The position numbers were made by a program, and so were the translations under genes. Source: a virus. Taken from it: DNA of 64,000 nt. Location: positions 1-64,000 of IMG/VR virus record IMGVR_UViG_3300035703_000009. The stretch is one strand, 5' to 3'. The notes below the pieces were generated by a model. That model saw nothing but the letters and a program-made list of their open reading frames with translations. It was not told the DNA's origin and searched no databases. Below, one piece after another: positions 19,960 through 45,138 of the stretch (position 1 is its first letter; each line of letters begins with the position of its first letter).

Positions 19960-21573
19960 TCAATTATGCGGACTTTCTTGCGCACACACTTCCACAGATT
20001 CCTTGGAATTTAATTTAGTTAGGTCAACCTCAATCTTCGCCACCTCAAACTCCTGTTCGTGATAGATCTCTTCACGGATCTTTGCGTGCTTTTCCATGTA
20101 TCCATCGAGCAGATCAATTAGATCCCAAATGATTACCTTGTTCTTTTCGGCAAGCTTACGCATGCCTCGGCCTATAGACTGTCGAATGGTGACCTCAGCT
20201 TTAGTCGACTCTGCAAAGACGATGTGATGTACATTTTTGAGGTCTATTCCAGTAGAAAAAGTGCCGAAGCTTGCTACAATTATCACGTCATTATTGGATT
20301 CCATGATGTCCTTGAATCGATCACGGTCACTGGAGTCGACCTCGCCGTCAATGTAAAAGGTGTTTGGGTTCCACTCAAATAGTTTCTGTTGGATCTTTTT
20401 ACCATAGCCGTTCTTCACGTCAGAAAAGAGGATGAGAGTGTTTTTACTTAGCTTTCGAGTAAGCGAGTCGATAAAGTCTAGCCGTTCTTTGCTCTCAAAG
20501 ATGAATCCACGTTCAATATTAAGCATGTCACGACCATAGTCCTTAGCGCTGTTATACATGGCTTTGCCGTCCTTCTTAAGCGCCCAATACTTTTGTAAGT
20601 ATTGACTCTTGCGATCGTACTTTAGGCCGACTGCCTTTATCTTGATGTTTGGTGAGTAGCCATTGTCGATCAGGTGCTTTGCTGAAAGCACCATCACTAG
20701 CGGACCAACATTCTCTTGCACTCTAAAGAAGTCAGAGTACTGCTCGTCGATTTTTACCGTGCCAGAAAGACCAAGTCGGTACGTCCAATTGACACAAGAC
20801 AGCAGGATGTTACGAATGACGTTGCCTCTGGACTTGTGCACCTCATCGACACACACAGTATGAAATGATTGGAACATGGAGGGTTGCCAGTTCTGTAGGC
20901 TCTGGTAGGTGGAGACCACCACCTCGCTCTCGTCAAACCTCTTCTGGTCGAACTTATCTTCTCCGCCGATAGTGCAGACCTTCCACTGTCTCTTACCTAC
21001 GGAATAGAGCTCGAATTTCTCGGCTGTCTGGCCGACTAGCGAGATGTTTGGGACTATAATTAGCGACTTTTTACTGGAGTCGATCTTGCGACCGTCTCGT
21101 AAAAAAGAATTGAAGATGTAAAAGATTAAGGTCTTACCAGCAGAAGTTGCCAGCTCTTGGGTGCAGAACTTATATTTGATAGCACGGTAGGCTCCCTCGA
21201 TCTGGTAGTCTCTAGGCTTAATTAAGTTGCCATGCTCATCTAGCACTCCATCAAGGAGCTTATTAACGTACTCTAGGTAACGCTCTCTAGGTAAGTTTAG
21301 GTTGAGTAGAGCGTCGATTCCATCGATCTCACAGTCGTAACCATATCGATTGGCACAGTTGTAGACTTCTTTCCACAGGCCGACTGCGATGCGACCCTCT
21401 TTGGTGATGAACTTGTCCTTTCCGTCCCAGATTCCTCTGTCAACTAGAGGATTAAAGTCTCCCTTCTTTGACTTGCGCTTAAAAAAATTGAATAGGTCAT
21501 TGCGCTCAGAATTGAGGTCAAAATCGACTAGAGATATGAAACGTAGGTCGTCGGTTAGCTTAAACTTGAGCAA
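19960..21573 (-). CDS. uvsW: UvsW-like SF2 DNA helicase
   Basis: RDYQ, TSAGKT (motif I) and CVDEVHKS (motif II). The C-terminal VIIVASFGTFSTGIDLKNVHHIVFAEST...QSIGRGMRK is near-collinear with T4 UvsW IIIVASYGVFSTGISVKNLHHVVLAHG...QTIGRVLRK. Confidence 0.8.
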   Translation of the reverse strand: MLKFKLTDDLRFISLVDFDLNSERNDLFNFFKRKSKKGDFNPLVDRGIWDGKDKFITKEGRIAVGLWKEVYNCANRYGYDCEIDGIDALLNLNLPRERYLEYVNKLLDGVLDEHGNLIKPRDYQIEGAYRAIKYKFCTQELATSAGKTLIFYIFNSFLRDGRKIDSSKKSLIIVPNISLVGQTAEKFELYSVGKRQWKVCTIGGEDKFDQKRFDESEVVVSTYQSLQNWQPSMFQSFHTVCVDEVHKSRGNVIRNILLSCVNWTYRLGLSGTVKIDEQYSDFFRVQENVGPLVMVLSAKHLIDNGYSPNIKIKAVGLKYDRKSQYLQKYWALKKDGKAMYNSAKDYGRDMLNIERGFIFESKERLDFIDSLTRKLSKNTLILFSDVKNGYGKKIQQKLFEWNPNTFYIDGEVDSSDRDRFKDIMESNNDVIIVASFGTFSTGIDLKNVHHIVFAESTKAEVTIRQSIGRGMRKLAEKNKVIIWDLIDLLDGYMEKHAKIREEIYHEQEFEVAKIEVDLTKLNSKESVEVCAQESPHN

Positions 21574-21588
21574 TCATCATAGATTATT

Positions 21589-22035
21589 TTACAAGCCAAG
21601 CGTCTTTTCGATGTCGAGGCGAGTCTTGATGCCAAAGATCACATTATCGATTGTTTTGATCGACTCGGTGAAAAAAGAGACCTGGTTCTCAAATATCTCA
21701 AGGAATTCCTTGGTCGCAGAAGTCTTTCCGTCGATCACCATGTTCTTTTCGTTGGCTTGATAACGCAGGGCTAGATTTCTGGAAAGTGTTTCCATTTCAG
21801 CTGCCTTTTCTTCTCGCATCTTCTTACGTAGGGAGGTCAAGTGTTCAAGTAGGGAGTGATTGTCCTCTAAAAGCTGCTGACGTAGTGATAGCATGTTCAC
21901 TTGAGCGTCCTTTAGCGTCTTAAGGTTAGATAACTTTTCTATATTTGCGTAAATTGAGCTAGAAACTTCCTTTCTACGTGCTTCGAACTTCTTTGAGATG
22001 CGGTCTTTGGTCGTTTCTTGGTCTTTTTCTTCCAT
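21589..22035 (-). CDS. coiled-coil protein, possible UvsY-like recombination mediator
   Basis: 148 aa, sits directly upstream of uvsW in the position UvsY holds in T4-like genomes. Sequence similarity is weak. Confidence 0.3.
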   Translation of the reverse strand: MEEKDQETTKDRISKKFEARRKEVSSSIYANIEKLSNLKTLKDAQVNMLSLRQQLLEDNHSLLEHLTSLRKKMREEKAAEMETLSRNLALRYQANEKNMVIDGKTSATKEFLEIFENQVSFFTESIKTIDNVIFGIKTRLDIEKTLGL

Positions 22036-22624: not shown

Positions 22625-23185
22625 ATGATTACTCAACTTGACATATATGACTTTGACGAGACGTTAGTCAGAGCTCCAAGCTATACAAACAAAAAAACAG
22701 TAGAAAGAGCTCATCCTGAGCATAATTTTGACACGCCGTATGCCTTTTACGATCACTCAAAGTCCCTGTGTGAGGACTTACACCACATACAGCTCATTGC
22801 ACCAGTATATGAGTGTTGGGGTCAGGCAAACCAAAACCCATCGGCAATCACAGCATTGGTCACGCACAGAGTAGAAAGCCTAGCGGATGAAGTAAAGGAC
22901 GTGTTGAACAGACGTGGCGTATCAATGGACTACTACTTCTTTTATGGAAGGGCTATCCCAAAGTTCAAAGCGATTGAGGAACTGCTCGAAAGGTTTCCAA
23001 ACATCAAGAAAGTAAGGATATTTGATGACTCATACGAACAGATCGACATCTACTTGACATACATTAACATCATCAAAGAAATAGACCATGACATTGAATA
23101 TGAGTTGTGGGCAGTAGACAAGACCAAGATATTTAAAGTAAACTCGCTAAACATTAGCGAACCTAAACGTATAAGTCTGATATGA
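22625..23185 (+). CDS. HAD-superfamily phosphatase, T4 Pnkp 3'-phosphatase-domain-like
   Basis: LDIYDFDETL (DxDxT motif I) and KVRIFDDSYEQIDIY resemble T4 Pnkp KAVIFDVDGTL / KLAIDDRTQVVEMW. Confidence 0.5.
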   Translation: MITQLDIYDFDETLVRAPSYTNKKTVERAHPEHNFDTPYAFYDHSKSLCEDLHHIQLIAPVYECWGQANQNPSAITALVTHRVESLADEVKDVLNRRGVSMDYYFFYGRAIPKFKAIEELLERFPNIKKVRIFDDSYEQIDIYLTYINIIKEIDHDIEYELWAVDKTKIFKVNSLNISEPKRISLI

Positions 23186-23778
23186 TAGTGATGATAGAAG
23201 GCCCACGTAACGTCGGCAAGACCACACTTATGTCCTCTTTTCTTGAAAAGAACAAGGATTCTAACGTGATCTATTACAAGTTTCTCTTTGCAAAGTACAT
23301 CGATCAGTTTAACATGCGAGACCAGGAATCTGGACCAGGCATGCACTACTTTAGCTTAGGCAACATACTTAGCATCTTTGAGCTTAATCAGACTCTATTT
23401 AAAGACAAGATCATCTTATTTGACCGATGCATCCACTCAGCCTATGTCTGGGCGATCTATCGAGAAAGGTTAGGTCGTGAAAAGTTGTTGGCTGAATACT
23501 CAAAGATACTCAACAGTGAGCTCTACACCGATTGCTCTACCTTTTACATCAATCGTCGAGAATCTATCAAGACTAAAACTAGAGGAAAGGACTTATTTGA
23601 TAACTTTGAAAGTCATGATAAAGAGTTGGCCCTGTTTGAAGAGCTGCTCGACTTAAACATGAAACCCGTCTCAGACGCCAATAGAGGAAATCACTTTGTG
23701 AAGTTCATCAATGATTTTAACGATGAAAGCATTAGAGATTTCAACTACGTACTTGGTGACTTGATAAAGAGAGGGTAG
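23182..23778 (+). CDS. P-loop kinase, candidate polynucleotide 5'-kinase (Pnkp kinase-domain-like)
   Basis: IVMIEGPRNVGKTTL Walker A. About 198 aa. Start overlaps the upstream HAD gene (ATGA). Confidence 0.4.
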   Translation: MIVMIEGPRNVGKTTLMSSFLEKNKDSNVIYYKFLFAKYIDQFNMRDQESGPGMHYFSLGNILSIFELNQTLFKDKIILFDRCIHSAYVWAIYRERLGREKLLAEYSKILNSELYTDCSTFYINRRESIKTKTRGKDLFDNFESHDKELALFEELLDLNMKPVSDANRGNHFVKFINDFNDESIRDFNYVLGDLIKRG

Positions 23779-23786
23779 TTTGCCTT

Positions 23787-23802
23787 AATAAATAATAAAA
23801 AA
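23787..23802 (+). promoter_or_regulatory. T4-late-like promoter motif AATAAATAATAAAAAA
   Basis: Exact 14-mer, 10 nt upstream of the ATG at 23813. An extended 20-mer CCTTAATAAATAATAAAAAA recurs at 52846. Confidence 0.55.
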
Positions 23803-23812
23803 CCAAGTAAGG

Positions 23813-24382
23813 ATGCGTAAAGAACTTAGATCCTTTGACCAATATTTAGTCGAACAAGCGGAGACAGCAGTCGCTAACCGTCCGTTAAAAGGATATACTG
23901 CCGAACAAATGATCACCAGGATCGGAGAACTAATGGAAGTTCTATCTGATGACATTCGATTTGGAGTTCCATCTGACACTCTTGGTAGAGTCACTACTTA
24001 TCGTGATGCAAACGGTGCCATCCAAAAGATCCAAGACATGCAGCACTACTATTCAAGCAAGGGCGAAGAAGTTCGCTTCTATGCATGGTCAATCAGTTAT
24101 TCAGGTAGCTGGAAGGCGACCAAGAATCTAAAGAGTAAAATCGAGGCTGCTGGAGGGTTTGGAGAAGAGAAGCTAAATATGAATCTTAAAAAGATCATAG
24201 ACTACTTTACTGAGAACGCAGAGGACTCCGACAACGTTCGTAGCATATCGATCAGCATGGACGCAGAGAGCATTCGCAAGGCCATGCAAAAGCCTGCTGA
24301 AAAACCAGAAGCCGCTGAGACTCCAGCGCCGACTGAAACCGCTAAATCTGAAGAAAAACCAGCTGAAACACCGGCTGAATAA
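23813..24382 (+). CDS. hypothetical protein (189 aa) with Pro/Glu/Ala/Thr-rich tail, late-expressed
   Basis: Late-promoter motif upstream. C-terminal PAEKPEAAETPAPTETAKSEEKPAETPAE. Confidence 0.5.
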   Translation: MRKELRSFDQYLVEQAETAVANRPLKGYTAEQMITRIGELMEVLSDDIRFGVPSDTLGRVTTYRDANGAIQKIQDMQHYYSSKGEEVRFYAWSISYSGSWKATKNLKSKIEAAGGFGEEKLNMNLKKIIDYFTENAEDSDNVRSISISMDAESIRKAMQKPAEKPEAAETPAPTETAKSEEKPAETPAE

Positions 24383-24385
24383 TCT

Positions 24386-26296
24386 ATGGCAGGAATAAAC
24401 AACTTACGAGAAATACGCGACAAGCGCGGGGATGACTTTTTAAATGGCATGATGAATAATTACGTCATCATCAATGAGAAGGTCGATGGCACATTCTTTG
24501 GAGTAAAAAAGACTAAAGGAGACCTATTTAAGTACTTCAAGAAATCGGGAGAGATCAGCTATGTCGATCGAGTGCTGATGAAGTACTACAACCACGTGAT
24601 CGCATATTTTGAGTCGATTCCTCTCGAGAAGAGGCAACGTATTCCAACAAATTTCTTTTTTGGATTCGAGTACTTGACCAAACGTGACGCAGCGGCAAGC
24701 CGATACTCAAGGATGCCAAAGAATGGCTTGGTTCTTTCCTACATCCATAAGTTAGATGATGCTGGAAACGTCATTGCTACAGTTCAAACAAAAGAACATC
24801 TTGATAGATGGGCGGACTATCTAGGAGTAGAGAGACCGCCGATAATCTTTGAAGGCAAGCTCGACGACGAACAAAGAGCCGAGATACTTGAGTTCGTCTA
24901 TGCACCAAACGATAAGTTATACGAAAAATTCAAGACCAAGTCCTTTACCAAGTACATCATCTCGGTTCTAAACAAGGATTATGAGTCGGCCTTCTTAAAG
25001 AACTCTAAGGAAGCTGGAATCGAAGGAATCATTTTTAGGTTCTATGATCAGAACTCTGAAAACCCAGAAGCAAACGTCTTCCTAGCAAAGTTGATAGATC
25101 CGCTATTTCAAGCAAAGGTAAAAGAAGGCGAGCCTGCTCGTAAGAATTCCTCGCAAGACTATATCTGGCTGATCGTCATCGACCTAATGAACCACTTTGA
25201 GATGTATGACCTTTCCGCATTAAAGGAAATGGCAAGCACACCAGGATCCTTTGAAGAAAAGTACGTGCAAATCATCAATTCCATATTTAAAGACTTTATT
25301 AAACAATACGCTGGCAAGTATGCAGGTCTGCATCTAGAGGTTCCAGAATACTTAAATCGACCTGAGTTCAACCTTGATTTTAGCCTAATCCAGGATCCAG
25401 AAGTAAAGAAGTTGGTCGAATCCAGCGAGACCTATGCTGAGATCTATAAGATCTTGCTCAACTTTTTCAGAAAGGCTCGTAAGAAATCGACTTCGGGTTT
25501 CTTCACCAACGAGTTACTGACTCAACTCAACCTCATCGTCGCAAAGATTCGTAACGTGATCATGGGAGACGAGGTGTATGAGGGACTCTTCCCAAGCTTT
25601 AGCGAGTTTGTGGGATCAGCAAACGATGAGTACATGCTGAGCGAGAAAGAAGTCGCTGAGCGCAATAGCAAAAAAGTCGAGGCTAATGAGGTCAATGTTC
25701 TAATTGGAAGCTTTCAGCCAGTGACGATGGGTCACATCAAAGCGGCAAAGAAGCTAAAGGAAAAGAACGGGTTACCGTGCGTCTTTGTTGCGATAAAGCC
25801 TCAATCGCCCACCGCAAAGTCACCTTTTTCTCCACGCTTAACTAAAGCACTATTAGACAAGGTGCAACAGGAGTTTAACGACCTGATAGTCGACGTCAAG
25901 ATAGTCGACTCTGGCCAGATTGAGGATGTAGTAGGCACATTGACTCCAAACTATGAACCTGCTCTTTGGGGAACAACTGAGCGTCGTCTTAAGGACTTTG
26001 CTCTGCAATTAGATTACATCAAAAAAAGAAACATTCCAATAAGGCTCTCTTCGAACCTAAAGTTGACTGAATTACCAGTCTACGTTAGATCAGAAGAAGT
26101 TATTGCTGCCATAAAGAGCTCAGACTTTGCTGAATTCAAAAAGCTAGTGCCAATATCTGTCGCATCAGAGTTCTTTAACTTACAAAAAGAGCTCGGATCG
26201 AAGATTGATGAAGCGACTAATTCAATGCAGAAGATATTTGAATCCGCAGAGATCTCGATTGAGATCGAGGATCCAAAGCTAAAGGAATCGGACTAA
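24386..26296 (+). CDS. RNA ligase (Rnl2-like nucleotidyltransferase) fused to a C-terminal HxGH nucleotidyltransferase-like (NMNAT/cytidylyltransferase-fold) domain
   Basis: N-terminal EKVDGTFFG (motif I KxDG), EGIIFRF (motif IV) and FLAKLIDP (motif V). The C-terminal 200 aa carries VLIGSFQPVTMGHIKAAKKL (a GxFxPxHxGH-like motif) and an SxxxIR-like segment. Confidence 0.55.
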   Translation: MAGINNLREIRDKRGDDFLNGMMNNYVIINEKVDGTFFGVKKTKGDLFKYFKKSGEISYVDRVLMKYYNHVIAYFESIPLEKRQRIPTNFFFGFEYLTKRDAAASRYSRMPKNGLVLSYIHKLDDAGNVIATVQTKEHLDRWADYLGVERPPIIFEGKLDDEQRAEILEFVYAPNDKLYEKFKTKSFTKYIISVLNKDYESAFLKNSKEAGIEGIIFRFYDQNSENPEANVFLAKLIDPLFQAKVKEGEPARKNSSQDYIWLIVIDLMNHFEMYDLSALKEMASTPGSFEEKYVQIINSIFKDFIKQYAGKYAGLHLEVPEYLNRPEFNLDFSLIQDPEVKKLVESSETYAEIYKILLNFFRKARKKSTSGFFTNELLTQLNLIVAKIRNVIMGDEVYEGLFPSFSEFVGSANDEYMLSEKEVAERNSKKVEANEVNVLIGSFQPVTMGHIKAAKKLKEKNGLPCVFVAIKPQSPTAKSPFSPRLTKALLDKVQQEFNDLIVDVKIVDSGQIEDVVGTLTPNYEPALWGTTERRLKDFALQLDYIKKRNIPIRLSSNLKLTELPVYVRSEEVIAAIKSSDFAEFKKLVPISVASEFFNLQKELGSKIDEATNSMQKIFESAEISIEIEDPKLKESD

Positions 26297-44376: not shown

Positions 44377-45138
44377 TTATTTTTTAAACACTGGGATGTT
44401 TTGCATCTTGTGTGAATTTTGAGTGTTAAAACTTCGGTAAATCCCTATTACTTCTTTTTCTCTAGCTGAAAGCTTGTCCAGATCAGCGGCAGTAAAATAA
44501 GGATTTTTTTCTAAAAACTGCATAGCCCATTCAAGTTCAGCATAGGAAGCACCTATTTGATCTTCATCGCTTCGTCCGTCTTCCCAGAGTCCATCAGTTG
44601 GTTTTGCTTTAATAATTGATCTAGATATTCCCAAATCTTCCCCTAGCTCCCATACCTCAGTTTTTAATAAATCAGCAATAGGGCTAATATCTACTCCTCC
44701 ATCTCCATATTTTGTAAAGAAACCGACTCCAAAGTCTTCTACTTTGTTGCCTGTTCCAACAACCAGCCCATGATTCTCAGTAGCGATTTGATAGAGAGTC
44801 ATCATTCTGAGTCTTGACCTAGAGTTAGCCAACGCAAGTTTGTTATCTTTTGTAAACAACGACTTAAAATTTTCAAAAACTTGGGTAAGATTCAACTCAA
44901 TTGATTCAACATTTGAGAAGTTGCTCTTTAACCAAGAAATGTGTTCATCTGCTCTAGTTAACTGATCTGGCGCTTGATGAATAGGCATGCTTACAACAAT
45001 GGTTTTTATTCCGGTCATTGCACAAAGAGTAGAAACAACGGCAGAGTCTATTCCTCCAGAAACTCCTATAATAAATGTTTTAAGATTAGCCGATTTTAAA
45101 TAATCATTCAACCACTTTGAAATTTGTTGTTGTAACAT
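44377..45138 (-). CDS. nadE: NH3-dependent NAD+ synthetase
   Basis: FIIGVSGGIDSAV PP-loop. GFFTKYGDGGVDISPI is nearly identical to E. coli NadE GFFTKYGDGGTDINPL. 253 aa. Confidence 0.8.
   Translation of the reverse strand: MLQQQISKWLNDYLKSANLKTFIIGVSGGIDSAVVSTLCAMTGIKTIVVSMPIHQAPDQLTRADEHISWLKSNFSNVESIELNLTQVFENFKSLFTKDNKLALANSRSRLRMMTLYQIATENHGLVVGTGNKVEDFGVGFFTKYGDGGVDISPIADLLKTEVWELGEDLGISRSIIKAKPTDGLWEDGRSDEDQIGASYAELEWAMQFLEKNPYFTAADLDKLSAREKEVIGIYRSFNTQNSHKMQNIPVFKK

Follow-up and report, generated by a model that had tools for sequence, protein, structure and literature searches.

The 64,000-nucleotide stretch of viral DNA analysed here (henceforth the window) stems from a large, T4-like phage and carries, on the + strand and exactly at the position given in the initial annotation, an open reading frame of 636 residues. 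The evidence supports a protein in which an RNA-ligase-type nucleotidyltransferase, nearest to Rnl2, is joined to a Rossmann domain with a HIGH motif resembling NMN adenylyltransferases (NMNAT). A 99%-identical protein is encoded on a 198.8-kb ENA phage contig. The reading frame and its parts are as follows:

24386..26296, + strand: whole ORF from the ORF list, 636 residues (ligase-like module, helical domain, linker, NMNAT-like domain, acidic tail)
24386..25120, + strand: nucleotidyltransferase (ligase-type) domain, residues 1-245
24473..24490, + strand: motif I, NEKVDG, residues 30-35, in register by hhalign with REKIHG (K35) of T4 Rnl2
24479-24481, + strand: K32, putative AMP-accepting lysine within motif I
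24659..24673, + strand: motif III, FGFEY (E95), residues 92-96, aligned to FGEFAG of Rnl2
25022..25042, + strand: motif IV, EGIIFRF (E213, R218), residues 213-219
25082..25102, + strand: motif V, LAKLIDP (K235, D238, P239), residues 233-239
25154..25570, + strand: all-helical middle domain, residues 257-395 (model helices H257-393), counterpart of the Rnl2/Trl1 C-terminal domain
25571..25684, + strand: flexible linker of low confidence, residues 396-433 (pLDDT <50 at residues 396-428)
25685..26197, + strand: Rossmann-like adenylyltransferase domain with HIGH motif (NMNAT-like), residues 434-604
25706..25735, + strand: HIGH-type motif GSFQPVTMGH (T447-x-G449-H450), residues 441-450
26087..26161, + strand: second motif region, RSEEVIAAIK then FKKLVPISV, a diverged ISSTxxR/SGTxIR equivalent aligned to YSGTEIRRRM..WEHLVPKAV of 1f9a
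26198..26293, + strand: weakly conserved acidic C-terminal tail of low confidence, residues 605-636 (pLDDT <50), varying in length and sequence among aligned clade members

Motifs I, IV and V lie where they had been read initially, with some 30 residues ahead of the motif I lysine, and together with motif III they follow the canonical order. The Pfam RNA_ligase profile (PF09414) matched the window protein with E=2.9e-4 and 21.4 bits, under its 27-bit gathering score, while the relative P0121 reaches 32 bits; the PHROG families of RNA ligases and cytidyltransferases also match the window protein weakly. A single-sequence search against solved structures returned no significant match for this protein, and the family profile found no PDB ligase at E<=1. 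Foldseek aligned the window protein to T4 Rnl2 with E=3.7e-7. The matches with full-length Rnl2, 352-367 columns long, and with Trl1-LIG reach past the nucleotidyltransferase domain, which is fold-level evidence. DNA ligases and capping enzymes carry an OB fold where Rnl2-type enzymes have a helical C-terminal domain. Within the window clade E31 and G35 are invariant. Among diverse representatives, F217 and F219 are nearly invariant, position 213 is D or E in 124 of 137, position 218 is K or R in 98 of 137 and K235 is kept in 122 of 138, while the E95 position holds a glutamate in only about half. From these motifs we predict a polynucleotide ligase module, with lysyl-AMP formation and 3'-OH/5'-PO4 sealing as its putative reactions. 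The AlphaFold2 model of the full-length protein has a mean pLDDT of 72.5, with the domains mostly at 80-90; at a pTM of 0.41 it does not define how the domains are oriented to one another.

The initial annotation had allowed that the C-terminal domain might prove to be a non-catalytic one lacking the HIGH fold, but a Rossmann-like fold of the HIGH superfamily was found. The Pfam CTP_transf_like profile matched it with E=3.8e-4 and 21.1 bits, its cut-off being 21, and Foldseek aligned it to NadD with E=1.3e-5, NadD structures being among the top structural matches. The proposed fusion of a ligase-type module to an HxGH-type domain is borne out by Pfam, Foldseek and profile evidence and by the conservation of both halves, a signal clearly stronger than chance. 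Across the 40 clade members aligned, residues G441, F443, Q444, P445, G449 and H450 never vary, and the pattern G..F.P...GH is present in 120 of 120 close clusters. Distant members read GRFQPFHNGH, like archaeal NMNAT, and many have a histidine at the first HxGH position; most also have a canonical SGTEVR or SATKVR...FKKxVP, whereas the window clade lacks that threonine and arginine. The initial annotation had taken SSD..LVPISV as the ISSTxxR equivalent. The true counterpart is RSEEVIAAIK (residues 568-577), with a glutamate in place of the threonine and an alanine in place of the arginine, and LVPISV is a downstream LVPxxV motif, to which M. jannaschii NMNAT and a PPAT each contribute an aligned LVP. 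Three positions that contact ATP in the NMNAT template are changed in the window clade: the arginine of GRFQP to serine, the first histidine of HxGH to threonine and the arginine of SGTxxR to alanine.

The window domain scores 16.1 bits against NF002243 (cut-off 127) and 17.3 bits against NF003787 (cut-off 449); the best family member reaches E ~6e-10 against NMNAT families, whose curated cut-offs span 103-449 bits, and the middle, acceptor-binding part of the domain was unaligned with NMNAT in the profile search. Its nearest relatives are NMN-type archaeal/NadM enzymes and not specifically NaMN-type NadD, as had been suggested. On its motifs, the domain is a candidate NMN/NaMN adenylyltransferase. 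We rejected an identity as phosphopantetheine adenylyltransferase (CoaD, TIGR01510), for which the domain fell short of the curated cut-off and which was not its closest fold relative.

The two modules are obligately linked. We found the fusion in 751 protein clusters at 50% identity and in at least 141 IMG/VR loci, with both halves conserved in hundreds of homologues and joined across hundreds of lineages at 25-99% identity. Representatives that matched the C-terminal domain only begin mid-profile at their own residue 1, and we therefore read them as contig-edge fragments. The initial statement that phage RNA ligases are not known to carry such a fusion stands for the literature searched, where this arrangement, common in uncultured phages, is undescribed. 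Sequence databases contradict it: there the fusion occurs in abundance, though unrecognised, under names such as "cytidyltransferase-like", "PPAT" and even "Cas2", which miss half the protein. Megablast against phage genomes gave no match, matches by tblastn were limited to six huge uncultured phages, and no relative of the window clade was present in the 185,579 cellular genomes searched. Long family members have C-terminal extensions, which matched no Pfam or PHROG family and had no counterpart among the window ORFs by blastp or HMM. T4-like cyanophages encode an analogous protein (S-PM2p141+p142; UniProt A0A0M6VVW4), represented by thousands of sequences from marine phages of this type, in which Pfam DUF6267 is combined with CTP_transf_like.

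Reading the N-terminal domain as a classical lysyl-AMP enzyme fits the window protein, in which K32 is present, but needs qualifying for the family: V, L, R, Q or N stands at this position in 14 of 120 close clusters, and the motif I lysine is absent from 32 of 133 representatives and from about a quarter of the distant clusters, through some 17 independent losses. The N-terminal domain does not diverge faster in lysine-less lineages (p=0.24), to which UniProt A0A6J5PUS9 belongs. Two old lysine-less clades retain K52/K53, D61, R62, motif IV, K235 and D238-P239, their losses being confined to the motif I lysine and the motif III glutamate, and K235 is kept by every member of the old lysine-less clades. 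In one old lysine-less clade motifs III and IV are also eroded and the HIGH motif is altered, which fits catalytic loss better than compensation. No near-full-length ligase-only representative (~370-500 residues) lacked the motif I lysine; the short lysine-less entries are just two fragments of 242 and 275 residues. Loss leans toward proteins with an intact HIGH motif (21 of 74 versus 7 of 53; Fisher p=0.05), a marginal difference uncorrected for phylogeny. Since most members, like 119 close cyanophage homologues, keep the lysine, the classical mechanism is normally under selection.

The genes flanking the fusion gene are:

19960-21573, - strand: UvsW-like helicase with ResIII, Helicase_C and UvsW_N domains
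21589-22035, - strand: orf148, adjoining the UvsW-like helicase gene
22625-23185, + strand: putative HAD phosphatase (HAD_SAK_1, 25.8 bits against a cut-off of 25.6)
23182-23778, + strand: nucleoside/nucleotide-kinase-like P-loop protein, nearest by profile to the deoxynucleoside kinase 6ybh (E about 3e-5) and to thymidylate kinases
23813-24382, + strand: orf189, hypothetical protein

The upstream + strand genes (22625..24382) are tightly packed, with a 4-bp overlap and a 3-bp gap before the fusion gene. The HAD gene, the kinase, orf189 and a metallophosphoesterase accompany the fusion only in loci L004-L012 (at least 53% identity), and 71 more distant loci have replication genes in their place; hhalign of window-clade neighbours against distant-locus neighbours detected no remote homology. 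Of 83 loci, 73 carry a UvsW-like helicase and 71 carry orf148 within 7 kb of the fusion gene, and the order RuvC-like resolvase, gp32, primase, orf148, UvsW, fusion, PolB is kept across relatives only 25-35% identical. The sole neighbourhood conserved family-wide is a T4-like replication/recombination module (UvsW, gp32, primase, PolB). An RNA-repair cassette of the heal-and-seal, Pnkp type is weakened as an explanation, because the linkage is clade-specific and the kinase is of the dNK/TMPK type (its PHROG match is 'thymidylate kinase') and not a polynucleotide kinase. The HAD protein had no PDB match by profile; nor did the metallophosphoesterase, which belongs to the PHROG of the T5 A1-like 'DNA transfer protein'. 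We also considered orf148 as UvsY, but BLASTP, PHROGs and Pfam gave no similarity to T4 UvsY, which it resembles in position and size only. ORFs near the fusion gene have N-termini resembling capsid-targeting sequences. A tRNA scan of the window found none, and scans for the T4 late-promoter motif TATAAATA and for generic promoters and terminators were uninformative.

What could a ligase module gain from an NMNAT-like partner? NMN adenylyltransferases join AMP from ATP directly to a ribonucleotide 5'-phosphate without a covalent enzyme intermediate, and both NMN and an RNA end with a 5'-phosphate offer a 5'-phosphoribosyl group as acceptor. We tentatively favour the possibility that the two modules cooperate on the 5'-phosphate ends of nucleic acids, the NMNAT-like domain providing lysine-independent adenylylation. 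The protein would then be a phage-specific enzyme with two active sites acting on one substrate. Its N-terminal two-thirds, the Rnl2-type ligase module, would bind a 3'-OH/5'-phosphate break in RNA or in an RNA-containing duplex and form the phosphodiester bond, while the C-terminal third, presumably descended from archaeal/NadM-type NMN adenylyltransferases, would adenylylate the 5'-phosphate end (ATP + pN... -> AppN... + PPi) ahead of the sealing step by the ligase module. Alternatively, the NMNAT-like domain might run in reverse and clear abortive AppN ends. Given K32 in the window protein, the classical lysyl-AMP route is probably available too. The data establish which domains the protein has, that they are obligately linked, that the HIGH motif is conserved and that the ligase lysine was lost repeatedly with no decay of the ligase-like domain; we infer which acceptor the NMNAT-like domain uses, how its site is coupled to that of the ligase module and what nucleic acid serves as substrate.

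Such cooperation is supported by the repeated loss of the lysine while the ligase-like domain and the HIGH motif persist, and by the cyanophages, in which an analogous KxDG module is fused to a homologous HIGH domain. Counting against it, we know of no HIGH-superfamily enzyme that adenylylates polynucleotide ends. E. coli NadD and NadR showed no RNA capping or decapping activity (PMC8131947). The three changed ATP-contacting positions in the window clade and the unpredicted inter-domain geometry (the low pTM given above) weaken it further, as do retention of the lysine by most members and the old lysine-less clade with eroded motifs III and IV and an altered HIGH motif. To our knowledge, all ATP- and NAD+-dependent polynucleotide ligases use a covalent lysyl-AMP intermediate. 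That the fusion and the cyanophage DUF6267 and HIGH family form a new class of polynucleotide ligase, its 5' end activated by a HIGH-motif domain with no covalent enzyme-AMP, is an unlikely extension of the proposal. In such a class the ligase fold would do just nick recognition and phosphodiester formation, which would account for losses of the otherwise universal motif I lysine, and the class might represent an unrecognised nick-sealing activity in the replication module of abundant aquatic T4-like phages.

The main rival, about which we are somewhat more doubtful, is that the protein has two independent activities: a classical ATP-dependent, lysyl-AMP RNA ligase that mends cut tRNA or other RNA and a true NMN/NaMN adenylyltransferase rebuilding NAD+, both serving counter-defence and fused only for co-expression, with lysine-less relatives having simply lost ligation. 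Without exception, the enzymes nearest to the C-terminal domain in sequence and structure are NMN/NaMN adenylyltransferases, and most members keep GRFQPFHxGH, (N/S)PF(S/T), SGTxVR and LVP. There is ample precedent for phage NMNAT domains joined to other enzymes, to Nudix in NadM and to a kinase in NadR (PMC7824862, PMC9503650), and the literature regards the cyanophage 'cytidyltransferase' as homologous to NMNAT and as influencing NAD+ levels (PMC10665884). The adjacent nucleoside-kinase-like protein could in principle phosphorylate nicotinamide riboside. However, the window domain scores far under the curated NMNAT cut-offs (16-17 bits against 103-449) and its acceptor-binding centre does not align with NMNAT. 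In described phages NadM is always accompanied by NadV (PMC9503650), but no obvious NadV was present among the ~40 window ORFs scanned. Two separate activities also leave unexplained both the obligate fusion and the conservation of the N-terminal domain after loss of its nucleophile.

The conserved neighbourhood raises a further alternative, compatible with either coupled or independent sites, which we hold to be improbable: that the protein is not a tRNA-repair enzyme but a replication-associated nick sealer that corresponds to T4 Rnl2 by its place in the replication/recombination module, closes nicks in RNA-DNA or DNA and perhaps supplies nick sealing where a phage lacks a gp30-type DNA ligase. 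In T4, rnlB lies ~3 kb from uvsW-uvsY, and in the window group the fusion gene is likewise a few kb from uvsW; the synteny with replication genes extends across the 25-35%-identical relatives, and the cyanophage analogue lies among replication genes, between UvsX/gp41 and gp61. No gp30-type ligase was found in the window, the loci and the two S-PM2 segments examined, all of which are partial genomes, so that the search covered only parts of each. The gene for gp30 is a replication 'quasicore' gene, and many quasicore genes are missing from some marine cyanophages (PMC2993671). Yet T4-like gene order is largely inherited, and synteny need not mean shared function.

Less probable still is an enzyme that modifies RNA 5' ends, with the ligase-like module mainly binding the 5' end or a nick and the NMNAT-like domain adding or removing a cap (NMN + pppA-RNA -> NAD-RNA, or the reverse). 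The ligase-like domain does persist without its nucleophile, with other pocket residues kept, beside a HIGH motif that is invariant in the close clade; no enzyme is known to cap RNA with NAD after transcription, a role for which NMNATs have been put forward (PMC8131947). The idea is purely inferential, however, E. coli NadD and NadR being negative in such assays, and most members hold the full ligase motif set. We think it very improbable that the protein is largely non-catalytic, for example carried in the virion or serving as a scaffold, with its enzyme folds as relics. Both domains show recurrent loss of catalytic residues within the family, proteomes of cyanophage virions often include 'cytidyltransferases' (PMC10665884) and the capsid-targeting-like N-termini of neighbouring ORFs would fit; but the window clade has both motif sets intact, with the HIGH motif in every close cluster, and the cyanophage family keeps every catalytic motif, a conservation hard to explain without catalysis.

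The weakest reading is the initially suggested NaMN to NaAD to NAD+ route, in which a NadD-like C-terminal domain would make NaAD for the NadE-like protein encoded at 44377-45138. That ORF is a bona fide member of the NAD_synthase family (PF02540, E=4.3e-50) and NadD is among the top structural matches of the domain, but the route is unsupported, because the gene lies 18 kb away on the opposite strand within a glycan-biosynthesis island of low GC (31-36% versus ~44%), beside two GT2 glycosyltransferases, a GT25, a GT29-like (sialyltransferase-like) protein, a UDP-glucose dehydrogenase and an FkbM methyltransferase. For the NadE-like protein, sugar amidation seems at least as likely a role; the neighbourhood conserved around the fusion in hundreds of phages is of quite another kind, and family-level matches favour NMN-type archaeal/NadM enzymes; we regard the route as highly improbable.

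Whichever reading holds, the fusion is an uncharacterised, strongly conserved enzyme in hundreds of lineages of large aquatic phages. Because the lysine is lost repeatedly while the ligase fold and the NMNAT-like domain are conserved, a lysine-independent route of activation is directly testable, and some marine T4-like cyanophages with the analogous protein can be grown in the laboratory. The fusion may also bear on the in vivo role of T4 Rnl2, on phage NAD+ metabolism during NAD+-depletion defence and on the search for a post-transcriptional NAD-capping enzyme.

Among known systems, the N-terminal module is most like T4 Rnl2 (gp24.1/rnlB) and the Rnl2/REL1/Trl1-LIG group, with which it shares the motif order I, III, IV, V followed by a helical domain. 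It shows no significant sequence similarity to T4 Rnl2 (hhalign E=0.04), and its motif V has a single lysine (LAK), unlike that of Rnl2, which reads KxK; the window family differs further in its additional C-terminal domain and in a motif I lysine that is dispensable in many relatives. The C-terminal domain compares with the archaeal/NadM NMNATs (M. jannaschii MJ0541, PDB 1f9a; M. thermoautotrophicum; Francisella and Synechocystis NadM), which have in common with most members the motifs GRFQPFHxGH, NPF(T/S), SGTxIR and LVP. Identity to these enzymes is ~15%, family scores lie far under the curated cut-offs (including NF002243 and TIGR01527), and the window clade reads GSFQPVTMGH and RSEEVIA. 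We know of no ligase fusion among the described archaeal/NadM enzymes. The phage NadM (KVP40 NatV) and NadR (ribosylnicotinamide kinase) likewise combine an NMNAT-like domain with another enzymatic domain in large phages, but here the partner is a polynucleotide-ligase module instead of a Nudix or kinase domain and the conserved context is replication genes.

A ligase fold that lacks the motif I lysine can still seal pre-adenylylated 5' ends, as the lysine-less members would need to: the K97A mutant of the M. thermoautotrophicum RNA ligase has lost steps 1-2 but performs step 3 on pre-adenylylated donors like the wild type (PMC3514331). K97A is a laboratory mutant acting on synthetic AppDNA and AppRNA, whereas the losses in this family are natural, recurrent and found beside a second adenylyltransferase domain. 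The closest parallel in overall build is the cyanophage family, in which a ~400-residue N-terminal module with a KxDG motif precedes a HIGH-motif domain. A0A0M6VVW4 matches the window protein structurally over its full length (Foldseek E=8.9e-10) and the C-terminal domains of the two families are homologous (hhalign probability 97%, E=6.7e-11), but the N-terminal modules have no detectable sequence homology (hhalign E=0.06-0.09), and DUF6267 has no match at E<=1 in the window protein. The putative motif IV/V stretch of the cyanophage proteins lies directly before the HIGH domain, which suggests a different arrangement of the helical region, and their motif I lysine is invariant in the 119 close homologues examined.

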